From contig NZ_JBCDMW010000005.1 in assembly GCF_038433155.1 (NCBI RefSeq), positions 1 through 60,601 of the forward strand: a stretch of 60,601 nucleotides of DNA, read 5' to 3'. Position numbers and translations under genes: made by a program. Shown here one piece after another: positions 1,877 to 26,813 of the stretch. Source of the DNA: Luteococcus sp. H101. Lineage in GTDB: Bacteria; Actinomycetota; Actinomycetes; Propionibacteriales; Propionibacteriaceae. Below the pieces are notes generated by a model that was not told the DNA's origin, did no database searches, and saw nothing but the letters and a program-made list of their open reading frames with translations. Each line of letters begins with the position of its first letter. Within the stretch, counting starts at the first letter, position 1.

Positions 1877-1929
1877 TTGTCCACAGGCCCCTGTGGATCG
1901 CTGTGGAAAAGCAGGAAGTTGTCCACAGC
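1877..1929. promoter_or_regulatory. cluster of four TGTGGA(C)AA half-sites (TTGTCCACAGG cc CCTGTGGAT cg CTGTGGAAAA ... GTTGTCCACAG) upstream of cpaB
   Basis: Read directly at 1877..1929. The same half-site recurs at 25051..25094 and 26783..26813. Confidence 0.5.
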
Positions 1930-1979
1930 CCTGCTATGACGGTAGGCCGGTTCCGGATCGTGCTGCAACGCTCGCCGCC

Positions 1980-2654
1980 ATGCTCCGCCCCGTCAAGAAG
2001 ACCTCCGACCCCGGCACCCCGGCAGCGCGCGTGGACCTGCCCGACCCGACGCTCCCCGTCGCCGCCCATCTGCGGCCGCGGCGTAGCCCCCGCCTGGTGG
2101 CGGCCGGGCTGCTGCTGGCCTGTCTGGGTGGGTTGGGCGGGGCGCTGGCCTACCAACGGGCCTCGCACGCCAACCAGGTGGTGGTGGTGCAACACGCCGT
2201 GCCGCGCGGGGAACTGGTCCGGGCGCAGGACCTGTCCGTCGTCACCATCGGCCCGGCGCCCGGGGTGCACACCGTCGACGCCAACCAGTTGCCCTCCCTG
2301 GTGGGCAAGCAGGCGCTGGTGGACCTGCCGGCCGGTTCCCTGGTGGGTGCTGGCTCGGTGGGCCAGGTAAGGCTGGCCAAGGGGCACGTCCAACTGGGGC
2401 TCAGGCTGGCGCCGGGGCGGGTGCCGGTGGAGCCGATGCCCGCCGGCACCCCGGTGCGTCTGGTGGAGGTCACCTCGGACAAGCAGGAGAACTCGGCGCT
2501 GGTGGTGGAGGCCATGATCGTCACCGCCGCCCGGACCCTGCCCGACGGCACCAGCCAGATGCTCGACGTCGGGGTGCCCGAGGCGCAGGCCCAACGGCTG
2601 GCGGACCTCTCCGCCCGGGACCTGTTGGTGGTTGTGCGCAAGGCGGGTGGCTGA
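1980..2654 (+). CDS. cpaB: Flp pilus assembly protein CpaB/RcpC-like (N-terminal TM plus SAF-like domain)
   Basis: MLRPVKK...RRSPRLVAAGLLLACLGGLGGALAY TM anchor followed by a beta-rich domain. It is the first gene of a tad-type cluster. The start was chosen at ATG 1980, in frame within ORF 1893..2654. Confidence 0.65.
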   Translation: MLRPVKKTSDPGTPAARVDLPDPTLPVAAHLRPRRSPRLVAAGLLLACLGGLGGALAYQRASHANQVVVVQHAVPRGELVRAQDLSVVTIGPAPGVHTVDANQLPSLVGKQALVDLPAGSLVGAGSVGQVRLAKGHVQLGLRLAPGRVPVEPMPAGTPVRLVEVTSDKQENSALVVEAMIVTAARTLPDGTSQMLDVGVPEAQAQRLADLSARDLLVVVRKAGG

Positions 2655-2655
2655 C

Positions 2656-3465
2656 GTGGCGGTGATCACCCTGGCCAGCGTCGCTGGGGCGCCCGGGGTC
2701 AGCACCAGTGCGTTGGGCCTGGCGCTGGCCTGGCCGCGCGACGTGCTGCTGGCCGACTGTGACCGGGATCCCGCGCAGACCATCCCGGCCGGCTACCTGC
2801 GGGGGACGGACCTGGGCGGCCGAGGCCTGGGCCAGCTGGCGGCGGTGCACCGGGAACACCGGCGCCTGGCCGAGGAGATCTGGCTGCAGACTGTGCGCCT
2901 GGACGGCGGGGAGCGGGACCGTCGCTTCCTGCCCGGCTTCACCCATCCCGGGGCGGTGGGCCTGTTCGGGCCCATCTGGCAGGAGCTGGCGGACTCCTTC
3001 GTCGCGCTGGGGGCCAGCGGAACCGACGTGTTGGTGGACGCCGGCCGGGTGGGGCGCGATGGCCTGCCCGGCCCGCTGCTGATGACCAGCGACGTGCTGT
3101 TGGTGACGGTGCGCAGTTCCCTGCGGGCGCTGGCCGCCCTGCGGCTGCACCTGCCGGCGGTGCAGGCCCAGCTGGAGGCCCTGGCCGCGCACGCCGAGCT
3201 GGCACTGCTGGTGGTGGGGCCCGGCAAGCCCTACAGCGGCGCCGAGATCGAGAAGCAGTTTGGTCTGCCGGCGCGCTACTCGATTGCCTGGGAACCCAAG
3301 CAGGCAAGGGTCTTCAGCGATGGCGCGAAGCCCTCACGCGGTCTGGCGGGCGGATCCCTGGTCCGCAGCTACCGGGCGTGCTCCTCCCGGCTGGCCGAAT
3401 CCGTGCAGCGTCGCACCGAGGTGGTGGCCGGGACCCGGCCCAGCGTCGAGTGGGGTGCGCGATGA
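2656..3465 (+). CDS. tadZ: CpaE/TadZ-like ParA-family protein with degenerate Walker A (helicase/secretion-neighbourhood CpaE-like)
   Basis: VAVITLASVAGAPGVSTSALGLALAW in place of a canonical P-loop. It sits between cpaB and tadA. GTG start at 2656 (alternative GTG at 2647), overlapping the cpaB stop. Confidence 0.55.
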   Translation: MAVITLASVAGAPGVSTSALGLALAWPRDVLLADCDRDPAQTIPAGYLRGTDLGGRGLGQLAAVHREHRRLAEEIWLQTVRLDGGERDRRFLPGFTHPGAVGLFGPIWQELADSFVALGASGTDVLVDAGRVGRDGLPGPLLMTSDVLLVTVRSSLRALAALRLHLPAVQAQLEALAAHAELALLVVGPGKPYSGAEIEKQFGLPARYSIAWEPKQARVFSDGAKPSRGLAGGSLVRSYRACSSRLAESVQRRTEVVAGTRPSVEWGAR

Positions 3466-4637
3466 GCCGTCGCGTTGCCGAACCCGCGCCCGCCCTGGCC
3501 GACCTGCTCGGGCAGTTGGCCGGGCCGAGCCCACAGGTCCGGGTGCGGCCCGCCCGCGCGGACACGAGCGGCCAGGCCGCCCCCTATCCGGCCACCGGGA
3601 CGGACCAGCCCGGGGTGGACTGGGACGTCGTGGTGCAGCTGCGGCGCCGCGCGTCGGAGCAGATCACCGAGGCCAGCGAGCACTTCAGCGGGGAACGCGG
3701 CCGGCTGATGAAGCCGGACGACCGGCGGATGATGGGGCGATCGGTGATCCGCCAGGTGGTGCGGCAACATGCCGAGATCCTGGCGCACGAGGGCCAGGCG
3801 CTGTGGCCGATCGAGCTGGAACAGGCCTACGCGGCGGCGGTGGAGAATGCGATCTTCGGCTACGGCCGCCTGCAACCGCTGTTCGAGATCCCCGACGCCG
3901 AGAACATCGAGATCCACGGTTGGGACTCGGTGATGGTCCAGTATGGCGACGGGCGACGGGAGGCCCACCCGCCCGTCGCGGACTCCGACGAGGAACTGGT
4001 GGAAGCCATCCGCTTCCTCGGGGAATCGGCCTCACCCAGCCGTCCCTTCGACGACGCGCACCCGATGATGACCCTGGCGCTGGGCGAACGCTTCCGCTTG
4101 CACGCCATCGGCTTCGGGTTGAGTTTCCGGCCCAGCATCATCATCCGGCAGCACATCCTGACCCGGGTCAGTCTGCGTCAGCTGGCGAACGGCGGGATGA
4201 TGCCGCTGGAGGTGGCCAGGCTGCTGCACGACGCGGTGCTGGCCCGCAAGTCGGCGGTGATCTCCGGCGACCAGGGGGCCGGCAAGACCACCCTGCTGCG
4301 CGCCATGATCAACGCGATTCCCACCACGGAACGCTTCGGCACCCTGGAGACGGACTACGAACTGCTCACCCACCTGCAGCCCGGCCGCAAGAACATGCTG
4401 GCCCTGCAGGCCAAGGTGGGCCTGGGGGAGCGGGCCGCCGACGGCAGCCGGATGGGCGAGTTCAGCATCAGCGACCTGATTCCGGAGGCCCTGCGGCAGA
4501 ACCTGTCCCGACTGGTGGTGGGCGAGGTCCGGGGCGGCGAGGCGGCCGCCATGTTCGAGGCCATGCAGTCGGGCACTTGCAGGCGGAAACTAGCCTCTCG
4601 AATCTCCTGCCAAGAGGGAGGACCGGCAATACAGTGA
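3462..4637 (+). pseudogene. tadA: tadA/cpaF pilus ATPase, 5' portion, interrupted by insertion of a mobile element after codon ...AMQSG (4574)
   Basis: Walker A GDQGAGKTTLLRAM is present, followed by ...GEVRGGEAAAMFEAMQSG. The ORF then reads 20 unrelated codons into element DNA and stops at 4637. The missing CpaF C-terminus (GSLSTTHS..., 'His box') is found at 24614 onward. Confidence 0.85.
4556..4600. other. attL junction of integrated element (host tadA arm / GG core at ~4572-4573 / element arm cacttgcaggcggaaact)
   Basis: Host coding sequence ends ...atgcagtcggg. The element arm that follows is the imperfect reverse complement of the arm at attR (aggttccaaatgcaagtg), matching 14 of 18 positions. 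Confidence 0.6.
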
Positions 4638-4641
4638 GGCC

Positions 4642-5430
4642 ATGCCAGCTCCCCCGTGGTTCGTGGACCAGCTCGGCTGGAAAGCCTTGGAGGCCAAGAG
4701 CCAACCCATGTCGCAGGACCTCTTCGGAATCCCAAGGGCCCCCAACCTTGCCGACGTCGCCAACAAGCCGAGCCTCCGGCTCGGGGCGGCCATGCTCGAG
4801 TCGCTATCGGTCAGGAGGGGCGCATCCCCTGTTTCCTCCGGAAAGCCTGGCACGTTGCTGGAGGAGGGAATCCGGTCAGACCTCGCTGAGACCCTCGCGG
4901 CGCTGGAGCCCAGTATCGCTTGGGGTGTCACGCGCGGCGGAACCGTGGAGCGTTTCGCCCAGTACCAGCACCTAGCCAAGCTGAAGGACTTGCTCGCGGC
5001 ATACCCTGACATTCCCATGGCGATGGGCAAGGACTACCAGATCAAGACTGACGTGATGGTCTCCGTGCCGGACAAGACCGAGCCTGGCCAAGACATCCTT
5101 CACGCGGCCGTGTCGTCGAAGTTCACGATCCGGTCTGACCGGGTCCAGAACATCCGATTCGAGTTTGCCACGCTGCTGCGCACTAGGCAGGGGCGGGCAC
5201 CGCACTTGGTGGTCGTGACGGGCGAGCCATTGCCCAGCCGTGTCGCAGCCATTGCGCAGGGCACGGGTGAGGTCGATGCTGTGTACCACCTGCTCTTCGA
5301 TGAAGTCTCGGATGCCGTCACGGCCCTCTTCCCGGCTGGGGCGAGCCAGCGCCGGACGTGGGAAGAACTGGTAGAGCGCCAGCGGGTGCGGCCCTACGAG
5401 GAGCTGGTCCTAGCCTTGGTGAGTTCATGA
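4642..5430 (+). CDS. type II restriction endonuclease, NgoMIV/Cfr10I family (predicted GCCGGC-type)
   Basis: The segment HAAVSSKFTIRSDRVQNIRFEF...RAPHLVVVTGEPLPSRVAAIAQGTGEVDAVYH closely resembles my recollection of the NgoMIV catalytic region (SxK...E with downstream PH-VVVT-EP-PSR-I-LGTGE-D-VYH). An upstream PD is present (VMVSVPD). RBS gtgagg lies before the ATG. Confidence 0.55.
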   Translation: MPAPPWFVDQLGWKALEAKSQPMSQDLFGIPRAPNLADVANKPSLRLGAAMLESLSVRRGASPVSSGKPGTLLEEGIRSDLAETLAALEPSIAWGVTRGGTVERFAQYQHLAKLKDLLAAYPDIPMAMGKDYQIKTDVMVSVPDKTEPGQDILHAAVSSKFTIRSDRVQNIRFEFATLLRTRQGRAPHLVVVTGEPLPSRVAAIAQGTGEVDAVYHLLFDEVSDAVTALFPAGASQRRTWEELVERQRVRPYEELVLALVSS

Positions 5431-6149
5431 CCGGTCAGTTGTTCGAACCCACGGCCGGGGGTGGCCTTGGCTTCTGCCACGACGCTATGCCCGGGTTGCT
5501 CCCAGCGGGCTACCACGGACCATTGGTGGTCGCCATCGACTCCAATGTACTGATCGACCTGTACGAGTTTGGCACCCGGATGGTGGAGGACAGCCTTCCC
5601 GAGCCCCCAGAGGTTCCGGCCTCGAGGGCAGGGGAGCTGGAGGCGATCGCCAGCATTCTGGACTTGTGGCTCATCAGGGACATCCGGCTGGTCACGACGC
5701 CACGGATCCTGACTGACGCCAAAGCCAATCCCTCGCGGCTTGCCCGCCGGAGGCAGGACATCGAGCACCTGGCTCGTGCACTGGCCTTCCAGCTCGAGGA
5801 CTGGGAGGAGCCGTTTCCGCTAAAGGCGCCGGAGCCCTCGTCGCCGCCGACTGTGATTGGGGCCCGGGGCGAGGCTGACCGGCAGCTCGTGGAAGAGGCA
5901 GCTGCGATCGGGGCTCACGTTTTCCTGACTCAGGACAAGCGCTTGCGGCGACCTGTTTCCATCCCAGATGCCGCGACCCAGGTCCTCTACCCGAGCGAGC
6001 TGGCGGCCACGCTGGCGGGGGCGCGCGTCACCCACTTCTTCGGCGGCATCTGCGGTGGCAGTGACTGCCCCTACCCGGATTTCAGCATGCCCGCCCCGGA
6101 CCTGGGCCGGTACGTGCTGCTGGGCCTGTTTGCGCCAGCGCCTGCGTGA
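5427..6149 (+). CDS. PIN-domain nuclease-like protein, translationally coupled (ATGA overlap) to the restriction endonuclease gene
   Basis: VVAIDSNVLIDLYEF (PIN beta1 with Asp), later acidic residues, and the C-terminal AAIGAHVFLTQDKRL PIN-like motif. Confidence 0.45.
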   Translation: MTGQLFEPTAGGGLGFCHDAMPGLLPAGYHGPLVVAIDSNVLIDLYEFGTRMVEDSLPEPPEVPASRAGELEAIASILDLWLIRDIRLVTTPRILTDAKANPSRLARRRQDIEHLARALAFQLEDWEEPFPLKAPEPSSPPTVIGARGEADRQLVEEAAAIGAHVFLTQDKRLRRPVSIPDAATQVLYPSELAATLAGARVTHFFGGICGGSDCPYPDFSMPAPDLGRYVLLGLFAPAPA

Positions 6150-6531
6150 TACGGGCAGCGCATGCCATGGCATCCTGCTTCACCTCGAAGTCCCAGAACC
6201 GTAGGACGGTCCACCCCATGGCTTCCAGCGCGCCGTTCGCTGCCTTGTCACGCTCCTGGTTCCTGGCGATCTTCGCCTTCCAGTAGTCGCTGGCCGCCTC
6301 CGGGTGCCAGTGGTCCGGGTGGCCATGCCAGTACGCGCCGTCAACGAACACGGCCACCTTTCGCCCCACGAAGGCGATGTCGGGCCGTCCTGGCAGGTCC
6401 TTGCGGTGAAGGCGGTAGCCCGGTTGCCCTGAGGCGCGAAGCGCTGCCCGCAGGGCCAGTTCCGGCTTGGTGTTGCTGGACCTGATGGCCCTCATGACGC
6501 GTGAGCGTCCTTCGGGGCTGAGGTGGTCCAT
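6082..6531 (-). CDS. vsr: very-short-patch repair endonuclease Vsr
   Basis: SRVMRAIRSSNTKPE, LPGRPDIAFV, VFVDGAYWHGH, YWKAKIARNQERD and MGWTVLRFWD all align with E. coli Vsr motifs. The start is 7 nt downstream of the dcm stop. Confidence 0.8.
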   Translation of the reverse strand: MDHLSPEGRSRVMRAIRSSNTKPELALRAALRASGQPGYRLHRKDLPGRPDIAFVGRKVAVFVDGAYWHGHPDHWHPEAASDYWKAKIARNQERDKAANGALEAMGWTVLRFWDFEVKQDAMACAARITQALAQTGPAARTGPGPGRAC

Positions 6532-6538
6532 GGCGGGC

Positions 6539-7537
6539 CTACTGGAACAGCAGCTCGGGTTCCTGGGCCCGGGCGGAGTTCTGGGGAGGTTCCGTGTCGA
6601 GGCGCGCGTTCAGGGCCTTGGCGATCTGGGTGCCGACAGCTGCGGCGACAGGCGGCGGGAAGGCATTGCCCACCTGGCGCCACGCGGCAGTCTTCGGGCC
6701 CGAGAACTTCCAGTCGGGCGGGAACCCCTGCACCAGGGCGCCCATCTCGACGGTCAGGCGCGGCGTGCCGGTGAAACCCGCCTCGGGTGCCGCCGGGGCG
6801 ATCGTCTTGCCGTCGACGCCCAGCTGGGCCCATGCCTTGCGGGCCCGGGTGGGCCCAAGGTCGGGGCCGCCATGCTTGTGCGAGCCCCCGACAAGGGTCG
6901 GGGCGATGGCGTTGGCCTGTCGGGCCCACTCGCTGGCACCCTCCCAGCCGTTGCTGGACATCAGGTCGAACAGGAGCTGCCCGACCGTGCGGGCTGGCTT
7001 CCGGGCAGGCTCGGGCCACGTGAAGTAGGCGTCCCACGGGTCCTTGATGGCGACCATGACGACGCGGGGGCGCAGTTGGGAGACGCCGAAGTCGCTGGCG
7101 TGCAGCAGCTTCCAGTGGGGGCGGAACCCCATGCTGGCCAGCTCGCGGGAGACCTCGTCGCGGAACCCCTCGAACTGCGGGTCCAGCAGCCCCCGGACGT
7201 TCTCGATCATCACGGCGCGGGGATCGGCCTGGCGGATCAGCTCCAGGGCGCGCGGGAACAGGTTGCGCTCGTCGTCGGCGCCCAGTTGCTTGCCAGCCTT
7301 CGAGAACGGGGGGCATGGCACGCCGCCTGCGAACAGGTCGACCTTGCCCTTGAAGGACTGCGCCGACCACTCGTTGAGGTCCATCTGGAGGGTGTTCCAC
7401 TGGGGCCGGTTCTGCCGCAGCGTCTCGCAGGCGCGTGCGTCCATCTCGACGCACGCGAGGTGCTTGAACCCCGCCGCCTCAAGGCCAAGCGCCTGGCCCC
7501 CTGCTCCGGCGCACACCTCTACGGACGTGAGTGGCAT
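6539..7537 (-). CDS. DNA (cytosine-5)-methyltransferase
   Basis: Motif I VCAGAGGQALG, motif IV GGVPCPPFS, motif VI IENVRGLL and motif X QVGNAFPPPVA. GGAGG RBS upstream of ATG 7537. Confidence 0.85.
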   Translation of the reverse strand: MPLTSVEVCAGAGGQALGLEAAGFKHLACVEMDARACETLRQNRPQWNTLQMDLNEWSAQSFKGKVDLFAGGVPCPPFSKAGKQLGADDERNLFPRALELIRQADPRAVMIENVRGLLDPQFEGFRDEVSRELASMGFRPHWKLLHASDFGVSQLRPRVVMVAIKDPWDAYFTWPEPARKPARTVGQLLFDLMSSNGWEGASEWARQANAIAPTLVGGSHKHGGPDLGPTRARKAWAQLGVDGKTIAPAAPEAGFTGTPRLTVEMGALVQGFPPDWKFSGPKTAAWRQVGNAFPPPVAAAVGTQIAKALNARLDTEPPQNSARAQEPELLFQ

Positions 7538-7565
7538 GGTCGTCCTCCTCTGTTTGGCTCATTCT

Positions 7566-7732
7566 TGCACAATGCCGGCGTGCTGGAAGCAATAATAGCA
7601 GATACTTCCTATTATTTCTAGGGTGCGCGGACAGTGAACGGCCTAGCCAATCGGGAAATTCTGGGTTCTTTCTTGGATTTCTCTGCAGGCCTCGACGGGA
7701 GCCCGGAAAGACTAAAAAATGCCGGCGCGGGA
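7566..7732. promoter_or_regulatory. AT-rich intergenic region between the methyltransferase gene and the upstream nuclease gene; two copies of AATGCCGGCG (containing GCCGGC) and an 8-bp inverted repeat AATAATAG/CTATTATT
   Basis: Direct repeats at 7571-7580 and 7718-7727, and the IR at ~7590-7615, were read from the sequence. AT content is unusually high for this genome. Confidence 0.35.
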
Positions 7733-8656
7733 TCAGAACAGCAAGCCGTGCGGGGCGGGCCTGGCAGGCTCGTCCCTGGGCAGGCTCAGCCAGTCGCCCG
7801 GCCCCAGCGCGAACCCGGCGACGGCGGCCCGCTCTCGGTCCTCCAGCCACTTGCCGCACAGGAGGTCGGCATTGTGCTCCGCGAGCACGAGGGCCTTGAC
7901 CTCCCGGGCCCGGCGCAGCGGGTCGTCACGGTTGGCGCAGACAGTCAGGATGGCATGCCTGGGAATCACGGTCCCGGGCAGGAACCCGAACAGCCGCGTG
8001 AGGCGGCGTGCCTGGCCGGTGCCCGGCTCGAAGACCAGGTCACGCTCGTGCGGCTCGAGGTCCCGCAAGGGGTTGTGCGGCAGGGCCGACCAGGGGATGA
8101 CAATCATGCCGAACCGGTCCAGGGCTGCTGCGCGGATCGTTGTCTTCCGGTCCTGGTTGCGGCCGGCGTTCAGCCACGCGTGGTGGGTGCGCATGAGCTG
8201 CACCTGGAACCGGTCATGGCGGAAGTCGATGCGGACCAGCAGGCACAGCTGGCACTGGGCTTCCTGCGGAATCGTCCACGTGCGTGCGACCGTGACCTTG
8301 ATGTCGACCGGGACGCCCTCGATCCACGTGTCCAGCGGGCCTCTCTTCTCGAGCCCCAGCGCGGACAGGATCCGGTACTGCGCCTTCGTGCCGACCGAGC
8401 TGCGCTCGTCGGAGTCGACCTCCGGGTCGTTCAGGTCGAAGCGGCCGGTGTGGGCGCCGTCCAGCACGTACTGGATGCTGTCGTCGAGCGCAGCGGTCAT
8501 CGCGACCGGGACTGCAGGCCGGGACAGCCACGCCCGCACGGCCTGCAGCTGCGCGTCATCCGCCGGGTCCTCGAGGACATGGCCATCGGGGACGGTCCCC
8601 CGCCGGGCATCTGGCTGGCACCAGTCGCCCGGCTGGGCAATCGCGTCCGACGTCAT
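7733..8656 (-). CDS. PD-(D/E)XK nuclease, possibly NaeI-like type II restriction endonuclease
   Basis: GPLDTWIEGVPVDIKVT gives D-x9-D-x-K, the spacing reported for the NaeI active site. The gene is on the same strand as, and immediately upstream of, the C5-MTase. Start is ATG 8656; a GTG at 8662 is also possible. Confidence 0.35.
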   Translation of the reverse strand: MTSDAIAQPGDWCQPDARRGTVPDGHVLEDPADDAQLQAVRAWLSRPAVPVAMTAALDDSIQYVLDGAHTGRFDLNDPEVDSDERSSVGTKAQYRILSALGLEKRGPLDTWIEGVPVDIKVTVARTWTIPQEAQCQLCLLVRIDFRHDRFQVQLMRTHHAWLNAGRNQDRKTTIRAAALDRFGMIVIPWSALPHNPLRDLEPHERDLVFEPGTGQARRLTRLFGFLPGTVIPRHAILTVCANRDDPLRRAREVKALVLAEHNADLLCGKWLEDRERAAVAGFALGPGDWLSLPRDEPARPAPHGLLF

Positions 8657-8808
8657 GCGCACACGCTAGCGCCGGCACCGCGGCCTAGCCGAGCGGGGTC
8701 CGTTGCTGGAACCAAAGACTTGGCTGTGAAAACGGCACGTTGCCATCGCTGATCATCTAGGGTGCAAGTAGAGTGCAACTTTCCGCTTGTCGATGGTAAG
8801 GATCTGCG

Positions 8809-9636
8809 ATGAACAAGCCCTTTGGGCTTTCGGGCGAGCACTACACGCTGGATCGCCCTCCGGCAGTGTTCAGCGTCTTTGAGGTGCGGTACGGCGAGGG
8901 GCGCGAACACATCAACCTCCAGGCGGGTTACGACCTTCAGGAGTTCATGTCCAAAACCTTTCCTGGCGGAACGTGGAAGGTCGAGAAGTCCACGTGGCAG
9001 GAGGCCCAGGTGGAGCTGACGCCCCAAGGGCCCCGCCAGCAGTCCTACTCGGAGGTCGGCGTCCGCCTCACAAGCTCGGAACTCTCCTGCGAGATGACAT
9101 TCTTCCCTTCTAGGGCGGCGGTTCAGGTGAGCCAGTACACGCGCTGGAGTACGTCACTGAAACCACTGGTGAGCGCGGCCGTGCTGGCTGTCGAACAGCT
9201 GCTCAAGCCAGTGGGACGGGATCGTGTGGGGTTGCGATACGTGAACAACTTCCAGGACCAGAAGGCCGTGACACCCGGCTTCTGGGACGGCAAGATCGAG
9301 CCGTCCCTGCTAGGACCAGTAGCTGGCGGCCCGTTCACGGGCCAGCTGCGTGATGCGCAGAGCCAGCTGGTTCTCGACTTGGGAGGTGGCGCCGGCGCAG
9401 TACTACGGCACGGGCTGCTCGCCTCACCTGCCGCGCCTGCAAGCGTGGGCTACCTGCTGGACATCGACACTTTTGACGAGCACAGCGCTAGGTTCGATGC
9501 GGAGGATGTCATCACGCGGGCGGAAGTGCTCAACCGCAACGCAGCCGAACTGTTCCAGAGGAGCCTGACCGAGCGTTTCTCGGTGGCACTCGGCAAGCGC
9601 AAGGTTGAATCGCAGGGGAATGGAGACATGCAATGA
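8809..9636 (+). CDS. TIGR04255-like family protein (uncharacterised)
   Basis: N-terminal PAVFSVFEVRYGEG and the later RVGLRYVNNF match the remembered TIGR04255 signature. Good RBS (aagga). It is the first gene of a three-gene overlapping operon. Confidence 0.45.
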   Translation: MNKPFGLSGEHYTLDRPPAVFSVFEVRYGEGREHINLQAGYDLQEFMSKTFPGGTWKVEKSTWQEAQVELTPQGPRQQSYSEVGVRLTSSELSCEMTFFPSRAAVQVSQYTRWSTSLKPLVSAAVLAVEQLLKPVGRDRVGLRYVNNFQDQKAVTPGFWDGKIEPSLLGPVAGGPFTGQLRDAQSQLVLDLGGGAGAVLRHGLLASPAAPASVGYLLDIDTFDEHSARFDAEDVITRAEVLNRNAAELFQRSLTERFSVALGKRKVESQGNGDMQ

Positions 9637-10313
9637 CCGCTGCAGTGCTGACCCGTACACGAACGGGTAGTTTCCATCCTGACCCCTATGCCGGGTGTGG
9701 GGCCCTGGTCTCCCACACGGGAATCCGCTACGAGTCCGTCCCCGATGTCAATTTCAGCGGCCGGCTCTTGCGCATGGACTTGATCTTCTCCACAACGGGA
9801 GAGACCTGGGTGGGTGAAGCGCCGCCGTCGGAGATCGGCGAGGATGAGGCAATCACGGTCCCTGCCGTGGTCGCCATTGAAGAGGCCGCGCAAGCCCTGG
9901 GGTTGCCCGTCAAGTACCTCCGCGAGGGTGCAGGGATCAGTCCTCGCACGTTCCATCACTGGAAGAAGACGCCGGCTGTGCAGCCGCGTGTATCGAGCCA
10001 AGCCGATGTGTGGGCCCTCATGGACACGCTCGAGACCCTGAAGGATCTCGTGGACGGGGACCTCGGGCTCTGGCTGAGGGCCGACACGGCCCGAATGCGA
10101 TTGCTGCGCGGAGGGGACTTGATGGGCCTCGTACGCGAGGCAACTCGCCGCGAGAGCTTGCGCAGCAACCGGTCTCACTTTGAGGAAGCGATGGCGGTTG
10201 GCTTCTTCGTCGAGCCCAAGGAAGCACCTGGCCCCGTTGGGCCCCGCCCTGTGGTTCGCGCCCGGAGGGCCGCCAGGGGTCGCGTCGTCCCAAGGGAAGG
10301 ACAGGGGGCGTGA
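9633..10313 (+). CDS. hypothetical protein, coupled (ATGA overlap) to the TIGR04255-like gene
   Basis: ORF with ggaga RBS and a 4-nt start/stop overlap with the preceding gene. No domain recognised. Confidence 0.4.
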   Translation: MTAAVLTRTRTGSFHPDPYAGCGALVSHTGIRYESVPDVNFSGRLLRMDLIFSTTGETWVGEAPPSEIGEDEAITVPAVVAIEEAAQALGLPVKYLREGAGISPRTFHHWKKTPAVQPRVSSQADVWALMDTLETLKDLVDGDLGLWLRADTARMRLLRGGDLMGLVREATRRESLRSNRSHFEEAMAVGFFVEPKEAPGPVGPRPVVRARRAARGRVVPREGQGA

Positions 10314-11230: not shown

Positions 11231-11309
11231 CGAGACCGTGCAGTCGAGTGCGCTAGGCACGTTCACGCAATGCCCATCCCTGTCGCCGTTCGTGCTCTAG
11301 GCTTCAGAC

Positions 11310-13090: not shown

Positions 13091-13111
13091 CCCCAGAGGC
13101 ACAATGGGGAC

Positions 13112-17682: not shown

Positions 17683-17703
17683 AGCCCAGCAGTCTGACAG
17701 GAC

Positions 17704-18303: not shown

Positions 18304-18537
18304 GCGGCTGACACCTTCCGGGGTTGATCGTCTCAGTTGGTCACATGACAGCATCTCGGGTCTTGTTGGTCCAGAAGGCTCGCGGACTCGGCTGACGTCA
18401 TTCTGCTCAAAGGGACGGACGCCGGTCACTGAACGCGGCACCGTCATCTCCTTGAGGTCGGTTGAGCATGAACCCGGTGTCGTCCGCACAGGCCACCATC
18501 CACGTGCCCGTGTCGCCTGGACCCAAGCGCGAACAGC

Positions 18538-19683: not shown

Positions 19684-20052
19684 GGTGGTGGTCCTCTCCC
19701 CGGCCTGTCCTGGTCGAGAGGCTACGTCGAGCCCTGGCCCCAGCGGAAGGCCTGATGGCCTTCTGGCTTGCTGTTTCACCTCATAACCAAAACCCCAATC
19801 AGGGCAGGTTTCCCGCCGTTCGGCCGGATGTTGAACCACGGCGCAATGCGGTGCATCAACTCGCATGCACTCGAGTGGACCACGGGCCGCGCGCCGTCCC
19901 ATGCAGGGGTTTGAAGGGCCGAAAAAGCGGCTCTTCTCACGCAAAACCGCTCCATCCCACAACAGATGGTTCAATCCGGGCCACCTGGGGGCCGTATGGG
20001 TGCGGTTGCGTGACCCAACTGAGCCGAGACCTCGGCAGAGAGAAACATCGAG

Positions 20053-20562
20053 ATGACCAGCAACACGACCGGTTGGGGCAAGAACACCCAACCCCACTCC
20101 CGTGGTCACTTGGACCACATTGAGCGTGAACTGGGCCTGGGGGTTGCCAATACGGTGCACCGCCCTGACGGCCTCGCGTACCAGGCCCGGCGGGAGGGAG
20201 ACCATCCCGTTCCCTCCGTGGCCGAACTGGCGGCACGCATCGACGGGGCCCTCAACAACCTGAACAACCTGTGGCTCGTGGCCGACGAGCTGCAGAGCCA
20301 GTTCCTGGAGGTCCAGGACGTTGTCAACGGCTTCTTGAAGCACGGCGCACCGCCCCCTCCGGAGGTCACGGTGTTCACCGTCAAGCAGGCCTGCACCCAT
20401 CTGGGAGTGAGCAGGACGACACTCACCAGGCTGCGCAAGCAAGGGCTGCCGTGCTTCACGCTGGGGGAGGGCACCGCTGCGCGCCCGCGCTTCCGGCGAG
20501 ACGAGCTGGACGCCTGGATCGCCAAGCACCAGCCGCGTCGCACGATCGGTGGCCAGCGATGA
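20053..20562 (+). CDS. xis: excisionase/MerR-type HTH protein (Xis-like)
   Basis: C-terminal FTVKQACTHLGVSRTTLTRLRKQGLPCFTLGEGTAARPRFRRDELDAWI. Its stop overlaps (ATGA) the integrase start. Confidence 0.5.
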   Translation: MTSNTTGWGKNTQPHSRGHLDHIERELGLGVANTVHRPDGLAYQARREGDHPVPSVAELAARIDGALNNLNNLWLVADELQSQFLEVQDVVNGFLKHGAPPPPEVTVFTVKQACTHLGVSRTTLTRLRKQGLPCFTLGEGTAARPRFRRDELDAWIAKHQPRRTIGGQR

Positions 20563-21803
20563 AGCGCGCGAAGGCGAAGGCTGGCGAGATCATCCCCCGG
20601 TTGCAGCAGGACGGCCGCTGGCGCACCAAGGTGACCATCGGCACCGACCCGCTCACCGGCAAGCCGCGCAGGCGTGACGTCTACGGCGCCACCTCCGAGG
20701 AATGCGCCCTCAAGGCCCGCAAGCTCCTGGACCGTGTCACGCACCACGGCATGAACTCCGTGCCCCGTGGCCGCGACCTCACCGTGTCGCAGTGGATCGA
20801 CCAGTGGCTGCTGGCCAGTCGCGAGACGCAGGTTCTGCGACCCAACACCCTGTCCGGGTACGAGTCGATGTGCCGGATCCACATCGTCCCCATGATCGGC
20901 AACATCCCGCTCAACAAGCTCAGCACGCAGGATGTCCACCTGATGCTGACCGCCACTGACTCCGAAGGCAATCCGGCGATGTCCGCGGCGATGCGCCGGC
21001 ACGCGCACAAGGTGCTGTCGGCTGCGCTGGCCGAGGCCGAGCGCTACGGCCACGTCGACACCAACGTCGCCAAGCTGGTCCGCACGAAGCGGCCCCGGGA
21101 GCCCGAGGTGGTGCCACTGTCCGTCGGCCAGGTCCGGCAGGTCCTCTCGCTGGCCCGGTCGCGGGACGAGGCCGCCCGCTGGCAACTGGCACTCGTCCTG
21201 GGCTTGCGCCAGAGCGAGGCCTTGGGCTTGCGGTGGCAGGACATCGACCTGGACAAGGGCCTGATGCACGTCTCTCGCCAGCTGAACCGGCGCAGGTGGC
21301 AGCACGGCTGCGACGTCGAGCACGACTGCCCAGGCACCCCCTCGACGTGCCCGCAGGCCCGTCGCCTCGATGAGCTGGCCGAAACCAAGACCGACCGGAG
21401 CGTGCGCACCATCACCTTGCCGGAAGGCGTGGTGGCAGACCTGCGGCGCCAGCGCAAGGTGCAGGACCGCCAGCGACGCCGCGCCAAGGACCGGTGGGTG
21501 GAGAAGGACTTCGTGTTCACCGGCCGGTACGGCAACCCGGTCAGCCAGCGCGTCGACCAGCTGGCATGGCGTGACCTGCTGGTGGACGCGGGCGTGCCGC
21601 ACATCCGCCTGCACGATGCCCGACACACGGCAGCGACACTGCTGGTGGCGCTGGGCACCCCGCACGTGACCATCATGGAGGTCATGGGCTGGTCGCACCT
21701 GGGCATGATCACGCGCTACACGCACCGCGTCGACGACATGCACCGCCGCGCGGCAGACGGCATGCAGCGGCTCCTCGAAGGGGAGATCTCGCGCTCGCTG
21801 TGA
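20559..21803 (+). CDS. int: tyrosine-type site-specific integrase
   Basis: SAM-like N-terminal region. Catalytic region with RLHDARHTAATLL (HxxR) and MITRYTHR (Tyr). Confidence 0.85.
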   Translation: MKRAKAKAGEIIPRLQQDGRWRTKVTIGTDPLTGKPRRRDVYGATSEECALKARKLLDRVTHHGMNSVPRGRDLTVSQWIDQWLLASRETQVLRPNTLSGYESMCRIHIVPMIGNIPLNKLSTQDVHLMLTATDSEGNPAMSAAMRRHAHKVLSAALAEAERYGHVDTNVAKLVRTKRPREPEVVPLSVGQVRQVLSLARSRDEAARWQLALVLGLRQSEALGLRWQDIDLDKGLMHVSRQLNRRRWQHGCDVEHDCPGTPSTCPQARRLDELAETKTDRSVRTITLPEGVVADLRRQRKVQDRQRRRAKDRWVEKDFVFTGRYGNPVSQRVDQLAWRDLLVDAGVPHIRLHDARHTAATLLVALGTPHVTIMEVMGWSHLGMITRYTHRVDDMHRRAADGMQRLLEGEISRSL

Positions 21804-21827
21804 AATGTCGCCGCATGGCACAAGGTC

Positions 21828-21990
21828 ATGAGCGACATTCGGAGCGGCAAGGACCCGCGCAAGGCTGTTGACGACTGGATCGCGGACTTCGTGGCCCGCG
21901 GCCCGCAGGACCTCCCGGAACCTGCGGGCCGCATCCTGCGGCGCGCGGTGGCCGAGGCTAAGCAGAAGCGGGGCCGTCGTGCGGCGTGAG
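21828..21990 (+). CDS. possible small basic ORF (53 aa, below ORF-track cutoff)
   Basis: ATG at 21828 reads MSDIRSGKDPRKAVDDWIADFVARGPQDL... to a stop at 21990. Weak support. Confidence 0.15.
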
Positions 21991-22012
21991 GCGAAGAGCA
22001 TCCACACCAAAA

Positions 22013-22072
22013 GATGCAAGCAGTGAAGAGCAATGCTTGCATCCCCGACACTGTCTACGCATGAAATGCAAG
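22013..22072. promoter_or_regulatory. 10-bp perfect inverted repeat GATGCAAGCA-N11-TGCTTGCATC plus a third ATGCAAGCAT copy, upstream of the P63C/Bro-like gene and downstream of int
   Basis: Read at 22013-22043 and 22063-22072. Operator-like, or an attP remnant of a nested element. Confidence 0.35.
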
Positions 22073-22084
22073 CATGGAGGATCA

Positions 22085-23065
22085 ATGCGTGCTCAAGCAG
22101 GGGAAGAGCAACAGGCCGTGACAGGCCGGAGGAAGGGCGGGGTAGCCAGGGCGCGAAGCCTTACCCCCGAACGACGAACACAGATCAGCAGGGAGGCCGC
22201 CAAAGCGCGGTGGGACATGAAGGAGGCTGTCTGCGGCTCAGCCGAACGGCCCCTCGCGATTGGGCCCGCGAAGGTGGAGTGCTACGTCCTTGAAGACGGC
22301 ATCCGGGTACTGACCCAGGCGACCTTTCTTGAAGCGCTGGGCCGGCATCGCAAGGCGAACACGCGACGCGAGGATTCAGGCCTTCCACCGGTGTTGCAGG
22401 GGCAGGCGATCCGGCCTTTCATTCCCGAGCGAGCCTTCGAAATCGCAGGCACAGTCACCTTCAGGCTTCCCACGGGAGGTCGTGCCAGCGGTTATAACGC
22501 GGAGCTGCTCCCGCTCGTCTGTGAGGCGTACCTGGCCGCGCGAGAGGCCGGCAAGCTTCCCTACAACCAGTTGCACGTCGCCCAGCAGGCGGAAGTGCTG
22601 ATTCGTGCCCTGGCCAAGGTCGGCATCATCGCCCTAGTGGACGAAGCCACTGGGTACCAAGAGGTCAGGGAACGTAACGCGCTGGCACGCATCCTCGAGG
22701 AGTACGTAGCAAGCGAGCTCCAGCCATGGGTCCCTACGTTTCCCGATGACTTCTACCGGGAAATGTTCCGCCTGCGTGGTCATGGCCGCCCCGAGTCGCT
22801 GTCCAGGAGACCCAGCTACTTCGGCAACTTGACCAACGACATCGTGTACGAGCGCCTGGCGCCGGGGGTGCTGGACGAACTGAAGCGGTCAACACCCCGC
22901 TCATCAGCCGGGCGGCGTATCCGTAAGTTTCATCAAGGCCTGACTCCGGACAAGGGACACCCCAAGCTCCGGGAGCACCTCTCCTCGGTCGTGACCATCA
23001 TGAAACTCAGCGACTCTTGGGACGACTTCACGACGAAGTTGGATCACATCCACCCCAAATTCTGA
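22085..23065 (+). CDS. phage-associated protein, Bro-N/KilA-N or P63C-like
   Basis: GGAGG RBS before ATG 22085. N-terminal KVECYVLEDGIRVLTQATFLEALG resembles Bro-N/KilA-N-type DNA-binding domains. Confidence 0.4.
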   Translation: MRAQAGEEQQAVTGRRKGGVARARSLTPERRTQISREAAKARWDMKEAVCGSAERPLAIGPAKVECYVLEDGIRVLTQATFLEALGRHRKANTRREDSGLPPVLQGQAIRPFIPERAFEIAGTVTFRLPTGGRASGYNAELLPLVCEAYLAAREAGKLPYNQLHVAQQAEVLIRALAKVGIIALVDEATGYQEVRERNALARILEEYVASELQPWVPTFPDDFYREMFRLRGHGRPESLSRRPSYFGNLTNDIVYERLAPGVLDELKRSTPRSSAGRRIRKFHQGLTPDKGHPKLREHLSSVVTIMKLSDSWDDFTTKLDHIHPKF

Positions 23066-23135
23066 GCAGTGTCAATCGTGCCGTCCGAACAGAGTGGCCC
23101 AGTCGGCCTGCGACTCGGAGGGGCCGAGGATCTCC

Positions 23136-24575
23136 TCACATTCGAGGCGTCTTCCATTGCAGTTCCAGGGAGTCAGGGTTGAGGATCCGCTGGCGCCAGT
23201 CCAGGTAGGTGGCCTCCTTGGTGCGGGCGGGCCTGATCTTGACGACGAGCAGGGCGTCGATGACGTTGCGCCGCTCGTCCTCGTCCAGGTCCTCCCACAC
23301 GAGTGCCGGGTCGGTGGCCTGCTGCAGCTTCGCCAGGGCGGGGGAGCCGAGGGCTGGCAGCTGTGCCTCCAGGGCCTCCAGCTGGCCTGCCAGGCGCTGC
23401 TGGCCGGATTTCAGCTGCTGCAGCGTGATGTCGCCGTCGGTGAAGGCCTGCACGAGGCCGTCGCGGCGCTGGTTGACCTGGGCCATCTGTTCCCGGATGG
23501 CGGCGGTGTCGGCCTGCTGGCCGCTGGGTGCCAGCTGGTCCAGCACGTGCGGCTGGGCGAGGTACTGCAGGACGATGCGGGTGACGAAGTCGTCGATCGG
23601 GGCTGCTTCCCGGTAGGCATGGCCGCCCTTGCTGGAGCACCGGTAGCGGCGCCGCCCGTTGCGGGTGCCGCCGGAGTGGATGACGGCGTCGCACACAGCG
23701 CACCTGGCCACGCCTGACAGCAGCCCACGGGACTGCGCAGGCCACTTGCGTTCCGGGTTGTTCAGGATGGCCTGGACGGCCTGCCAGGTGTCCAGGTCGA
23801 CGACCGGTGGCCATTCGCCGCGCACCGGGTTGCCGTCGGCATCGGTGAGCACCTGGCGCTGGTAGGAGCGGATACCGGCCAGGCGGGTGGTGCGCAGGGT
23901 GAGGCCGACGATGCTGCCGGTCCACGGGTTGCCTGCCTGTGGCGTGACCAGGCCTTGCGCGTTCCAGGCGCGGGCAATTCCTGCCAGTGAGCCGCCATCC
24001 AGAATGGTCTGGTAGGCGCGGCGGATGGCCTCGGCCTCGGTCTCGCGGATGGTCAGCCCGTCGGGTTCGTACCCGAAGCAGCGCCGGGTGCCGAAATGCC
24101 TGCCTTGCAGCGCGCGTTGCAGGTTGGCGCGCTTCTGCCGCTCGCCTTTCTGCTCGGACTCGTACTGGGCGACCGCGGCGAGCTGGCGGGCCACCATGCG
24201 CCCGGACGGGGTGGCCAGGTCGAGGGGGCCAGCCATGCACGCGATGGTGGGCACCGAGCGCGGCTGGCAGACGGCGATGTAGCCCTCGAGGTCGGTGGTG
24301 CGCCGGTACAGCCGGTCGGTGTGCCAGACGAGGACGACGTCGACCTGCCCGTCCTCGATGGCTTTGAGCAAGGCCTTGTAGCCGGGCCGGGGCGTGGAGC
24401 TGTAGGCGGAGGTGTCGTTGTCGCTGTAGACGGCCACGACGTCATGGCCGAGTTCAGCGGCTTTGGCGCGGCAGTCCTCCTCCTGCCTAGTGACGCCGGC
24501 CTTCTCGCCGGTGGGGTCACGGCTGATGCGCGTGTAGATCGCCGCTTTGCCCATGTAGGAAGGATATGCCAGCAT
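23136..24575 (-). CDS. large serine recombinase (resolvase N-terminal domain, recombinase domain, zinc ribbon, coiled-coil)
   Basis: AAIYTRISRD...GVTRQ catalytic N-terminus, the Cys cluster CAVCDAVIH...RYRCSS, and a C-terminal coiled coil. The start (ATG 24575 or 24554) abuts attR. Confidence 0.85.
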   Translation of the reverse strand: MLAYPSYMGKAAIYTRISRDPTGEKAGVTRQEEDCRAKAAELGHDVVAVYSDNDTSAYSSTPRPGYKALLKAIEDGQVDVVLVWHTDRLYRRTTDLEGYIAVCQPRSVPTIACMAGPLDLATPSGRMVARQLAAVAQYESEQKGERQKRANLQRALQGRHFGTRRCFGYEPDGLTIRETEAEAIRRAYQTILDGGSLAGIARAWNAQGLVTPQAGNPWTGSIVGLTLRTTRLAGIRSYQRQVLTDADGNPVRGEWPPVVDLDTWQAVQAILNNPERKWPAQSRGLLSGVARCAVCDAVIHSGGTRNGRRRYRCSSKGGHAYREAAPIDDFVTRIVLQYLAQPHVLDQLAPSGQQADTAAIREQMAQVNQRRDGLVQAFTDGDITLQQLKSGQQRLAGQLEALEAQLPALGSPALAKLQQATDPALVWEDLDEDERRNVIDALLVVKIRPARTKEATYLDWRQRILNPDSLELQWKTPRM

Positions 24576-24584
24576 GCCATGTTG

Positions 24585-24625
24585 GACATAGGTTCCAAAT
24601 GCAAGTGGGGGCGGGCAGCCTCAGT
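24585..24625. other. attR junction (element arm aggttccaaatgcaagtg / GG core ~24608-24609 / host tadA arm ggcgggcagcctcagt)
   Basis: The element arm is the imperfect reverse complement of the arm at attL. Host coding sequence resumes in frame as ...GAGSLSTTH. Confidence 0.6.
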
Positions 24626-24964
24626 ACCACCCACTCCCATTCCGCCTCCTCGACGATGGACCGGCTGGCCTCGCGGGTGGCGCAGGGCGGGGTGGTCAGC
24701 ATCGACGAGGCCTATCGCCAGATTGCGCACAACATCCACCTGCTGGTGCACGTGCGGCTGGTGGACGACACCTGGCGGGGCGGCACCAGGAGCCGCCACG
24801 TCTCGGAGGTGCGGTTGCTGACCGGCGCGCTGGAGGCTGGCCGGCCGGTCACCCACCTGATCTACCAGGCCGCCACCGCCAGCCAGCCCGCCGTCTGGCA
24901 TCCCGACCCGGCGCTGGCCGACGAGCTGGCCGAATTCGCCGGTGCCTTCGAGAAGGCGACGTGA
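24608..24964 (+). pseudogene. tadA: tadA/cpaF 3' portion (C-terminal ~118 codons)
   Basis: GSLSTTHSHSASSTMDRLASRVAQGGVVSIDEAYRQIAHNIHLLVHVRLVDD... matches the CpaF C-terminal region. Its frame is continuous with the 5' portion once the element is removed. Confidence 0.8.
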
Positions 24965-25848
24965 ACCCGGTGATCGCGGGGCTGTCCGCCTTCTGTCTGG
25001 TGGCCGGGCTGCTGTTGGCCGTCGACGGTCTGCGCAGGCGGCCCAGGGCCTTGTCCACAGGGAATTCCACACCCCTGTGGACAACTGTGGACAACTGGTG
25101 GGTCGGCTGCTCCCGGACCCGTCGGATCCACCTGTTGGGAACCCTTGCCGGGGCCGTGGTGGCCTTCCTGGTCACCGGCTGGGCACTGCTGCTGGTGGCC
25201 GTCCCGCTGGTGGTGATCGGTCTACCGGCCCTGCTGTCCGAGCCGAGCAACCGGGACCTCGTGATCCTGGAGGCCCTGGACCGCTGGGTTCGGGGGCTGG
25301 CGGCGTCGCTACCCACCGGGAAGTCCGTCACCGACGCGATCCGGGCCACCGCACCCCAGGCCCCCGAGCAGATCCGGGGCCCGGTCCAGGTGATGGTGGC
25401 GCGCCTGGATGCCCGGTGGACCACCAGGGAGTCGCTGGTGGCCCTGGCCGATGACTTGGACAGCGCGGACGCGGACGCGGTGCTGGCGTCGCTGATCCTG
25501 GCGGCGGAACGGGGCGGCGTCGGGGCCACCGCGATCCTCACCGAACTGGCCGAATCCATCCAGGCGCGGCTGCGGGCATTGCGGGAGATCGAGGCGGAGC
25601 GGGCCAAACCACGCGTCGTGGTGCGCCAGGTGACGATGATCAGCCTGGTGGCGATCACCCTGGCCCTGCTGCTGCAGCCGTCCTTCTTCCGGGCCTACCG
25701 CACGCCGATCGGTCAGGTCCTGATGCTCGGCCAGCTGCTGGCCTACGCCGGGTCCCTGTTGGCGATGCGCCGGATGACCATTCCGCGGCGTCGGGAGCGA
25801 ATCATCCGACGCCGCCCCACCCAGCCCCTGGGGGTGGCCGATGCGTGA
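24961..25848 (+). CDS. tadB: Flp pilus assembly protein TadB (T2SS F-type membrane protein)
   Basis: GTG start overlaps the tadA stop. Polytopic membrane protein in the tad cluster position. Confidence 0.7.
   Translation: MNPVIAGLSAFCLVAGLLLAVDGLRRRPRALSTGNSTPLWTTVDNWWVGCSRTRRIHLLGTLAGAVVAFLVTGWALLLVAVPLVVIGLPALLSEPSNRDLVILEALDRWVRGLAASLPTGKSVTDAIRATAPQAPEQIRGPVQVMVARLDARWTTRESLVALADDLDSADADAVLASLILAAERGGVGATAILTELAESIQARLRALREIEAERAKPRVVVRQVTMISLVAITLALLLQPSFFRAYRTPIGQVLMLGQLLAYAGSLLAMRRMTIPRRRERIIRRRPTQPLGVADA
25051..25094. promoter_or_regulatory. TTGTCCACAGG ... CCTGTGGACAA CTGTGGACAA cluster inside the 5' coding region of tadB
   Basis: Read directly from the sequence. Same half-site as at 1877-1929 and 26783-26813. 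Confidence 0.45.
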
Positions 25849-26764
25849 CCCGATCCTGCTGTGGGTGGTGGCCAGCGGAATCCTGGTGGCCACCGGGCTC
25901 TTCCTGGCGATCACCGGGGTGCGGGGCCGCACGGTCCGGCTGGCCGACGCCCTGGACCTGCTCTCGAGTGGGGCGGTGCCCGACGGCCCGGGGCCATCGT
26001 CGGTGCGCAACGAGCCGGCGGGCAGCGACGGTGACCTGGCCAGCCGGCTGGGAGCCTGGGCCTTCACCCGGCTGCATCTGCCCTTGTCGGACCGCAACCG
26101 ACGGGCGCTTGGCCTGCGAGGCCGCTCCATCGGGGACTTCTTTGCCGAGAAGCTGATCCTGTTCACGGTGGGGCTGGTCAGCCCGCTGATGTTCACCGCC
26201 GTGCTGCAGGGTTTCGGCCGGCTGGTCACACCGGTGCCCATGGCCGCGAGCCTGGGACTGGCCGCGTTGGGCTGGTTCTGGCCGGAGATCGGCCTGCGCC
26301 GCTCGGACCGGACGCTGCGCGCCGACGCGGGCGAGGCCCTGTTCACCTTCTTCGACCTGGTCACCCTGGAGCGGCTGGCCAATGCCTCGGCCGCGCAGGC
26401 CATGATGTCGGCCGCCAGCCTGTCCGACGTGCCGCTCTTCCTGCGGCTGCGCACCGCCCTGGAGCGGGCCCGGCTGGAGCAGCGGCCACCCTGGCAGGAA
26501 CTGCACCGGCTGGCGCAGGAACTTGAGGTTCCCGAAATCGCGGACATCGCCGACGTGATGCGGCTGGACGAGCAGGGCGCCGCGCTCTCCGAGACGTTGC
26601 GCGCCCGGGTGCGGGAGTTGCGCGACGCCCACCTGTTGGCCGAGAAGCTCGCCGCGCACCAGGTCTCGGAGCGAATGACCTTATGGATGGTTATTCCGTC
26701 GATGATCTTCGGTCTGGTCTTCCTCACCCCGCCGGTCCTGAAGCTGCTCGGGGTGGCCCCGTGA
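25841..26764 (+). CDS. tadC: Flp pilus assembly protein TadC
   Basis: Overlaps the tadB stop. Membrane protein with T2SS-F-like organisation. Confidence 0.65.
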   Translation: MRDPILLWVVASGILVATGLFLAITGVRGRTVRLADALDLLSSGAVPDGPGPSSVRNEPAGSDGDLASRLGAWAFTRLHLPLSDRNRRALGLRGRSIGDFFAEKLILFTVGLVSPLMFTAVLQGFGRLVTPVPMAASLGLAALGWFWPEIGLRRSDRTLRADAGEALFTFFDLVTLERLANASAAQAMMSAASLSDVPLFLRLRTALERARLEQRPPWQELHRLAQELEVPEIADIADVMRLDEQGAALSETLRARVRELRDAHLLAEKLAAHQVSERMTLWMVIPSMIFGLVFLTPPVLKLLGVAP

Positions 26765-26782
26765 GCAGCCCAACCCCCAAGT

Positions 26783-26813
26783 TTTCCACAGGTTTGCATG
26801 GGCCTGTGGATGA
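26783..26813. promoter_or_regulatory. TTTTCCACAGG-N10-CCTGTGGATGA inverted repeat upstream of the flp pilin gene
   Basis: Read directly from the sequence. ~45 bp upstream of the flp RBS. Confidence 0.45.

Follow-up and report, generated by a model that had tools for sequence, protein, structure and literature searches.

The tad (Flp pilus) locus of Luteococcus sp. H101 carries three arrays of a short repeated motif, which we identify from its sequence as the general actinobacterial DnaA box, flanking bases included. The locus lies in a stretch of 60,601 nucleotides (contig NZ_JBCDMW010000005.1, positions 1 to 60,601; hereafter the window), and its arrays are found upstream of cpaB, within the 5' coding sequence of tadB and upstream of the prepilin gene flp. 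We consider it probable, at roughly 60%, that DnaA binds the three arrays and regulates the Tad operon. The original prediction, made from the DNA alone, had taken the motif for the operator set of a dedicated Tad regulator and had named as candidate the SARP-like domain of a 1053-aa LysM protein encoded in the locus. One half of that claim holds, as the sites do map to the promoter regions of cpaB and flp and recur in relatives; the other half, a regulator dedicated to Tad, fits poorly with a motif that is the general DnaA box.

All nine copies of the motif listed in that prediction were found again, and a scan for the hexamer TCCACA added a tenth, previously unlisted site, AATTCCACA at 25063-25071 on the forward strand. 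This brings the TCCACA-cored sites of the Tad locus to ten, placed by sequence and hexamer scan in three clusters:

1877-1929, mixed strands: DnaA-box cluster 1, upstream of cpaB, four boxes, TTGTCCACA at 1877-1885 (+), TGTGGATCG at 1892-1900 (-), TGTGGAAAA at 1902-1910 (-) and TTGTCCACA at 1919-1927 (+)
25051-25094, mixed strands (-> -> <- <-): DnaA-box cluster 2, within the tadB coding sequence, four boxes starting at 25051, 25063, 25076 and 25086, TTGTCCACA at 25051-25059 (+), AATTCCACA at 25063-25071 (+), and TGTGGACAA at 25076-25084 (-) and 25086-25094 (-)
26782-26813, convergent: DnaA-box cluster 3, upstream of flp, two degenerate boxes, TTTTCCACA at 26782-26790 (+) and TGTGGATGA at 26805-26813 (-)

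Cluster 1 is located 51-103 bp upstream of the cpaB ATG (1980), cluster 2 occupies the stretch 90-134 bp inside the tadB open reading frame (ORF; 24961-25848), and cluster 3 falls in the gap from the tadC stop (26764) to the flp ATG (26859). Neighbouring boxes are offset by 10-22 bp, start to start, in all three clusters. The spacers between inverted copies, first given as 2, 10 and 13 bp, were roughly right and measure 2, ~12 and 10 bp. Five of the ten sites are perfect boxes, and the other five have 1-3 mismatches and retain TCCACA. The exact 9-mer TGTGGACAA occurs five times in the window, always within clusters 1 and 2, compared with 0.25 copies expected, and none of 100 shuffles reached five. 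The 17 remaining TCCACA hexamers in the 60-kb window are solitary and lack the flanking consensus. Judged by these shuffles and by the recurrence of the sites at the same positions in relatives, the clusters far exceed chance, as had been supposed.

To identify the motif, we compared it with published boxes and with origin regions. In Mycobacterium tuberculosis and Streptomyces coelicolor, TTGTCCACA has been published as the high-affinity DnaA box (PMC4285127). We profiled the flanks of 44 tad-locus sites and of 46 TCCACA sites from five actinobacterial dnaA/dnaN regions, and found a G directly before the 9-mer (position -1) in 61% of the tad sites and 72% of the origin-region sites, and a G directly after it (position +1) in 80% and 72%, respectively; background TCCACA hexamers in the window showed neither preference. 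Both sets of sites hold TCCACA and let the first three bases drift (TTG, TTA, TTT, TTC, GAT), and several of the relatives' sites are of the E. coli type, TTATCCACA. The second tadB box behaves in the same way, with AAT, AAA, AAG, AGA or CAA preceding a TCCACA that is invariant across five species. Weak sites that keep TCCACA and lose TTG follow the DnaA pattern. Tandem boxes with a period of 10-11 bp occur in an origin region too (L104, TTGTCCACAGTTGTCCACA). The longer consensus proposed at first, (A)GTTGTCCACAGG, turned out not to be a distinguishing feature.

We scanned public genomes for TTGTCCACA-N(0-24)-TGTGGACAA and obtained at least 120 matches; ~13 of the matches listed adjoin dnaA, dnaN or yidC, and no Luteococcus origin is among them. 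A similar arrangement also appears next to another replication gene. In the Propionicimonas genome that carries the tad locus L004, a similar -> <- <- set of boxes is found directly upstream of dnaB (L056 4711-4870), and a second relative has weaker boxes in front of its dnaB (L175 15734-15809). These boxes suggest that dnaB is part of the DnaA regulon in this order. We had considered L056 as the Propionicimonas oriC and rejected it, since its cluster precedes dnaB and neither dnaA nor dnaN is close by.

Positional conservation is a further line of evidence. The window's tadA is split by an inserted island (described below). Syntenic loci that lack this island were compared from three relatives, Luteococcus sp. 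H138, Luteococcus sp. OSA5 and L. peritonei, and clusters recur in them at the same positions. All three positions are occupied in H138 and OSA5, and the first two in L. peritonei, whose tadC-flp gap, where the third would lie, is just 17 bp. At the place of cluster 1, a multi-box cluster is present in all three relatives. At the sites orthologous to cluster 3, H138 and OSA5 have perfect boxes with a different spacing, and the cluster is absent wherever the tadC-flp gap measures only 17-26 bp (L003, L004, L005). The inverted pair upstream of flp is spaced by 20, 21 or 9 bp, start to start, among orthologs, and this variability points to recognition monomer by monomer rather than to a fixed dimer operator. 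The tadB array has an identical geometry in four Luteococcus species (-> -> <- <-, offsets 0, 12, 22, 32), and its 44-bp block is conserved in Cutibacterium sp. V947 as well; Propionicimonas keeps three of the boxes and Micropruina none.

A wider sample was obtained by searching metagenomes with the TadB alignment, which added 80 loci; collapsing at 90% nucleotide identity resulted in 54 loci. Of the 32 that could be assessed at the cpaB 5' end, 30 carry one box or more (≤1 mismatch) and 18 carry at least two. At least two boxes were found in the first 230 bp of tadB in 24 of 51 loci, and a box follows tadC in 9 of 45. Elsewhere in related tad loci the background is 0.13 boxes per kb.

The array within tadB provides a separate line of evidence, as it is both protein-coding and conserved as DNA. 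It encodes the loop between two N-terminal transmembrane helices (TM1 and TM2), and its translation, L-S-T-G ... S-T ... L-W-T-T-V-D-N-W, is conserved, unlike the rest of that loop; 73 of 120 TadB homologs have the ST..LW peptide signature. Of the array's four threonine codons, three are ACA and one is ACT, which account for 2.2% and 2.8% of threonine codons in the genome, and TTG accounts for 5.2% of leucine codons. Across five species, 62% of columns are invariant in the block, compared with 23% and 11% in the adjoining coding DNA. Because the array is written in rare codons, these sequences show that selection on it acts at the level of DNA, and the loop peptide ST..LW owes its existence to the embedded DNA sites.

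We also considered that the array might be non-coding, since the Prokaryotic Genome Annotation Pipeline starts tadB after it in OSA5 and L. peritonei. This was rejected: in every relative the tadB frame runs open through the box cluster, is conserved, and has a start that overlaps the tadA stop. The public tadB starts of OSA5 (L002 9866-10001) and L. peritonei (L003 9875-10001), which fall after the array and give proteins of 251 and 254 aa, probably lie too far downstream, because the upstream frame is open and conserved with a start overlapping the tadA stop.

From these arrangements we infer how binding by DnaA could control the operon. DnaA would bind each 9-mer as a monomer through its C-terminal domain and would oligomerise cooperatively across closely spaced boxes. 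This is in line with reports that boxes are bound by cooperating monomers with a preference for closely spaced pairs, and that E. coli DnaA occupies mainly double boxes plus some intragenic sites (PMC11317965). In the cpaB promoter region, DnaA would cover four to five boxes, which stop just a few bp short of a conserved TATG downstream; the last box ends ~7 bp before this TATG and is oriented opposite to the tandem pair. At the flp promoter, the downstream box would overlap the likely -35 element. The sequence upstream of flp in relatives is TGTGGACAAG, followed 16 bp on by a conserved CATACT, and the TGGACA within the reverse box of these relatives would serve as the -35 element. The corresponding feature in the window is:

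26829-26834, forward strand: putative -10 element CATACT of the flp promoter, conserved in alignment A4

No promoter came out of strict sigma-70 and terminator scans around the clusters, so the promoter positions proposed here come from conservation only.

Within tadB, DnaA would occupy the intragenic four-box array, which may act as a roadblock to elongation or as a looping partner of the promoter arrays; these are ~3.1 kb and ~1.7 kb away in intact loci. The outcome would be a Tad operon whose expression is tied to the level or nucleotide state of DnaA, that is, to replication status or the cell cycle. Repression at high DnaA occupancy seems the likelier sign, because the boxes overlap the core promoter. 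The promoters of dnaA itself are an example of repression by boxes that overlap core promoter elements (PMC8203912). A more far-reaching proposal, that DnaA directly gates Tad (Flp) pilus biogenesis in Propionibacteriales through three operator arrays, one of them in tadB codons, is one that we put forward tentatively and regard as possible but rather doubtful.

Several observations weigh against regulation by DnaA. Tandem 9-mers are separated here by 1 bp, whereas E. coli DnaA prefers 2-3 bp. The share of matches at origins in the public-genome scan (~13 of the 120 listed) describes only this sample. The locus also encodes a plausible DNA-binding regulator, the SARP-like domain. Finally, L175 and L248 replace the boxes with direct repeats of GGTGTTGTCC ~20 bp apart, which have TTGTCC in common with the box, and it is possible that a second protein recognises the 5' half of the motif. 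As part of the more far-reaching proposal above, the LysM/SARP-like protein may cooperate or compete with DnaA at the overlapping TTGTCC half, merging an envelope signal with replication status.

This protein is also at the centre of the best surviving alternative, in which the boxes are its operator and its SARP-like domain switches on the tad promoters, possibly when the LysM domains sense a cell-wall signal. We regard this as unlikely, though it is the most serious of the competing explanations. The features concerned are:

27940-31101, forward strand: 1053-aa LysM membrane protein, with two LysM domains, a transmembrane segment near residue 500 and a SARP-like C-terminus
30379-31098, forward strand: SARP-like domain of the LysM protein (residues ~814-1053), placed by fold comparison

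The domain itself has moderate support. An AlphaFold model of residues 771-1053 (m07996812bd67, built on 34 homologs, predicted local distance difference test score 72) has strands, three helices and a hairpin, forming a winged helix, and then a helical bundle. Its five best matches in the PDB are AfsR and EmbR, over ~260 columns with E values of 1e-3 to 6e-3 and TM-scores of only 0.36-0.43, and these fold matches agree with the SARP-like domain named at the outset. Pfam recognises the two LysM domains, with BTAD at E = 0.59 only. Searches of PDB sequences with the C-terminus, as a single sequence and as a profile, gave no match, and no Pfam domain is precomputed for homologs. Among the 34 homologs, the helix TRRSNMSRLRxWLG is invariant or almost invariant. 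With moderate confidence, the model suggests an OmpR-type winged helix with a BTAD-like bundle and membership of the SARP family. The predicted topology is that of a membrane protein with its LysM domains outside and the SARP-like domain in the cytoplasm, which may make it an undescribed one-component transmembrane regulator. Its gene closes nearly every related tad locus.

As an operator for this protein, the motif has some suitable properties: besides the supported fold, the invariant recognition helix and the position of the gene, tandem copies with a 10-bp period are present in clusters 1 and 2, and the GGTGTTGTCC direct repeats of L175 and L248 are SARP-style and share TTGTCC with the box. 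Yet it would be a remarkable coincidence for such an operator to equal the DnaA box, flanks included, and the part of the box that is conserved is TCCACA, not the TTGTCC shared with those repeats. Known SARP sites consist of direct repeats spaced by 11 or 22 bp, and a distance of 8 bp separates the 3' repeat from the -10 element (PMC10936776). Here the tandem copies have a period of 10 bp, the remaining copies form inverted arrangements, and the spacing varies between orthologs, all of which clashes with dimers bound side by side on direct repeats; the flp site is merely an inverted pair. The same motif and arrangement are, moreover, found upstream of dnaB. Motif and regulator also fail to co-occur across loci, in that L175 and L228 encode the protein and have no box (≤1 mismatch) at the 5' end of either cpaB or tadB; the L175 protein (P0210, alignment A5) has the invariant recognition helix, and the L228 copy was detected by tblastn only.

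The GGTGTTGTCC direct repeats were found at L175 1171-1233 (also 336-366), L248 1728-1778 and L176 17346-17375, spaced by ~20-21 bp (once 12 bp) and lying upstream of flp in L175 and of cpaB in L248. Tad loci with these repeats have few or no DnaA boxes. We considered GGTGTTGTCC as a universal SARP operator and found this unsupported, as arrays occur in L175, L248 and L176 only.

A different possibility keeps DnaA as the binding protein and makes the operon incidental: the clusters would chiefly control replication by titrating or recycling DnaA, as datA, DARS and the Bacillus subtilis clusters do, and their position in tad would have no meaning of its own. Mixed-orientation multi-box arrays outside oriC are the hallmark of such loci (PMC6868365, PMC2533591). 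One metagenomic tad locus (L205 286-1517) would suit this role, with ~12 boxes (≤1 mismatch) in the 1.25 kb upstream of cpaB, a number that rivals an origin's, and no dnaA or dnaN nearby. However, the boxes hold their positions relative to tad genes (the cpaB 5' end, the tadB loop codons and the flp promoter) despite differing neighbour genes, and they overlap likely core promoters. Neither the fixed positions nor the promoter overlap is expected of a locus that only titrates DnaA, and we consider this explanation improbable.

It is equally improbable, in our estimate, that another transcription factor with DnaA-box-like specificity reads the sites, or that they are a non-functional repeat or relic, such as a plasmid origin left on a mobile tad island: Spo0A and MtrA can share half-sites with DnaA boxes at origins, tad loci are frequently transferred horizontally, and hairpin repeats of Pseudonocardiaceae carry TTGTCCACA, but a relic does not fit the strong positional conservation and the maintenance of rare codons. 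A dispersed repeat should also leave traces beyond the box. In a test for repetitive extragenic palindromic (REP) or miniature inverted-repeat (MITE)-like elements, 52 kb of the window and the flanks of L001-L003 contained no perfect box apart from those in the tad clusters. Comparison of the three clusters found no similarity beyond the box itself, and an Rfam search of window 1-32000 returned no match.

The Pseudonocardiaceae repeats consist of TTGTCCACA-N12-TGTGGACAA with further complementary flanks and are present several times per genome (L061-L159; 32 loci, mostly Amycolatopsis and otherwise other Pseudonocardiaceae). They look like a dispersed hairpin repeat family built on DnaA-box sequence. 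We also scanned viral contigs for inverted box pairs and found 49 matches, none in a tad context. One family of viral contigs (L006, L008, L011, L012, L028, L043, L048, L051, L053) has a single inverted TGTCCACAG/CTGTGGACA pair with a 16-bp spacer, located a few kb from a large serine recombinase gene.

We assigned the remaining genes of the locus by Pfam and synteny, as follows:

1980-2654, forward strand: cpaB/rcpC-like gene (Pfam SAF); the ATG agrees with the annotated starts of relatives
2632-3465, forward strand: tadZ-like gene, assigned by position only (syntenic in L001-L005); a Pfam search with its product gave no match
3378-4568, forward strand: 5' part of the interrupted tadA (cpaF) ATPase gene (Pfam T2SSE); island junction mapped against the intact L001 tadA
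4569-24598, no strand: inserted island of ~20 kb that splits tadA, with junctions from blastn; separate from the motif system
23136-24575, reverse strand: large serine recombinase, 479 aa, at the right end of the island
24599-24964, forward strand: 3' part of tadA, from tblastn and blastn against the relatives' intact tadA
24961-25848, forward strand: tadB (T2SSF), from homologs and a weak Pfam T2SSF match (E = 2.9e-4, under the gathering score); its start overlaps the tadA stop (GTGA), and its product is 100% identical to a Luteococcus protein at NCBI
25841-26764, forward strand: tadC (T2SSF), syntenic, with a weak Pfam T2SSF match (E = 1.2e-3, under the gathering score)
26859-27092, forward strand: flp prepilin gene, from its translation, with the cleavage motif ERG/LSQSTE followed by a hydrophobic stretch
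27100-27465 and 27482-27943, forward strand: two TadE-like pseudopilin genes (Pfam TadE)

Besides the serine recombinase, the island encodes NgoMIV- and NaeI-like restriction enzymes, a C5 methylase, GmrSD, a HEPN protein and a tyrosine integrase. Comparison with the uninterrupted tadA maps attR to ~24599, so cluster 2 does lie ~450 bp from it, as first described. In Propionicimonas (L004 ~1-9338), another element interrupts tadA at a different codon (~residue 292) and encodes a 508-aa serine recombinase that is only ~30% identical to the 479-aa one of the window. As tadA is interrupted in two genomes at different codons by different elements, it looks like a recurrent integration target, and pilus function might then depend on excision of the element.

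If the Tad operon is indeed regulated by DnaA, the role of DnaA would come to include pili for adhesion or DNA uptake, in a family to which the skin and dairy propionibacteria belong. It would also provide a direct link from replication state to pilus in bacteria without CtrA, which to our knowledge the Propionibacteriales lack. The tadB array is a clean example of a coding sequence constrained by an embedded regulatory array. For motif searches in high-GC actinobacteria, we suggest comparing any find with TTGTCCACA before proposing a new regulator.

It is well established that DnaA boxes occur outside origins and that DnaA acts as a transcription factor; a link between DnaA boxes and tad or Flp loci was looked for in the literature and not found among the papers searched. 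The less usual features of the present system are the presence of three arrays in one operon and a four-box, codon-embedded array conserved across genera. Its closest counterparts are the DnaA-regulated promoters, namely dnaA autoregulation in Streptomyces and mycobacteria and E. coli nrdA, polA and purH, with which it shares the 9-mer consensus of the phylum, the close multiple boxes and the promoter position (PMC8203912, PMC11317965). It differs from them in that the target is a Tad pilus operon rather than a replication or nucleotide gene, in having three arrays for one operon, and in that its boxes are known from sequence. Known DnaA regulons are small and centred on replication, nucleotide supply and repair.

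Intragenic DnaA sites, as in E. coli dnaN and guaB, likewise place a box inside a coding sequence. The tadB array goes further, as four boxes are set in the loop codons of a membrane protein, persist across genera and impose ST..LW and rare codons; the E. coli guaB site, for its part, was unbound in chromatin immunoprecipitation sequencing (PMC11317965). The DnaA-box clusters of B. subtilis and the E. coli datA and DARS loci also have several mixed-orientation boxes away from the origin, but what defines those loci is their influence on replication or the nucleotide state of DnaA, whereas the arrays here track the gene boundaries of one operon. SARP operators such as the afs box of AfsR resemble the present system in the locus-encoded SARP-like protein and in some tandem copies near -35, and differ from it in that the copies here include inverted ones, with a 10-bp period and variable spacing. 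Finally, the cpa/pilA genes of Caulobacter are another case of a Tad-type pilus under a cell-cycle regulator. There, CtrA controls cpa/pilA and DnaA acts only indirectly, through GcrA and CtrA, so that both the regulator and the motif differ from those proposed for Luteococcus.

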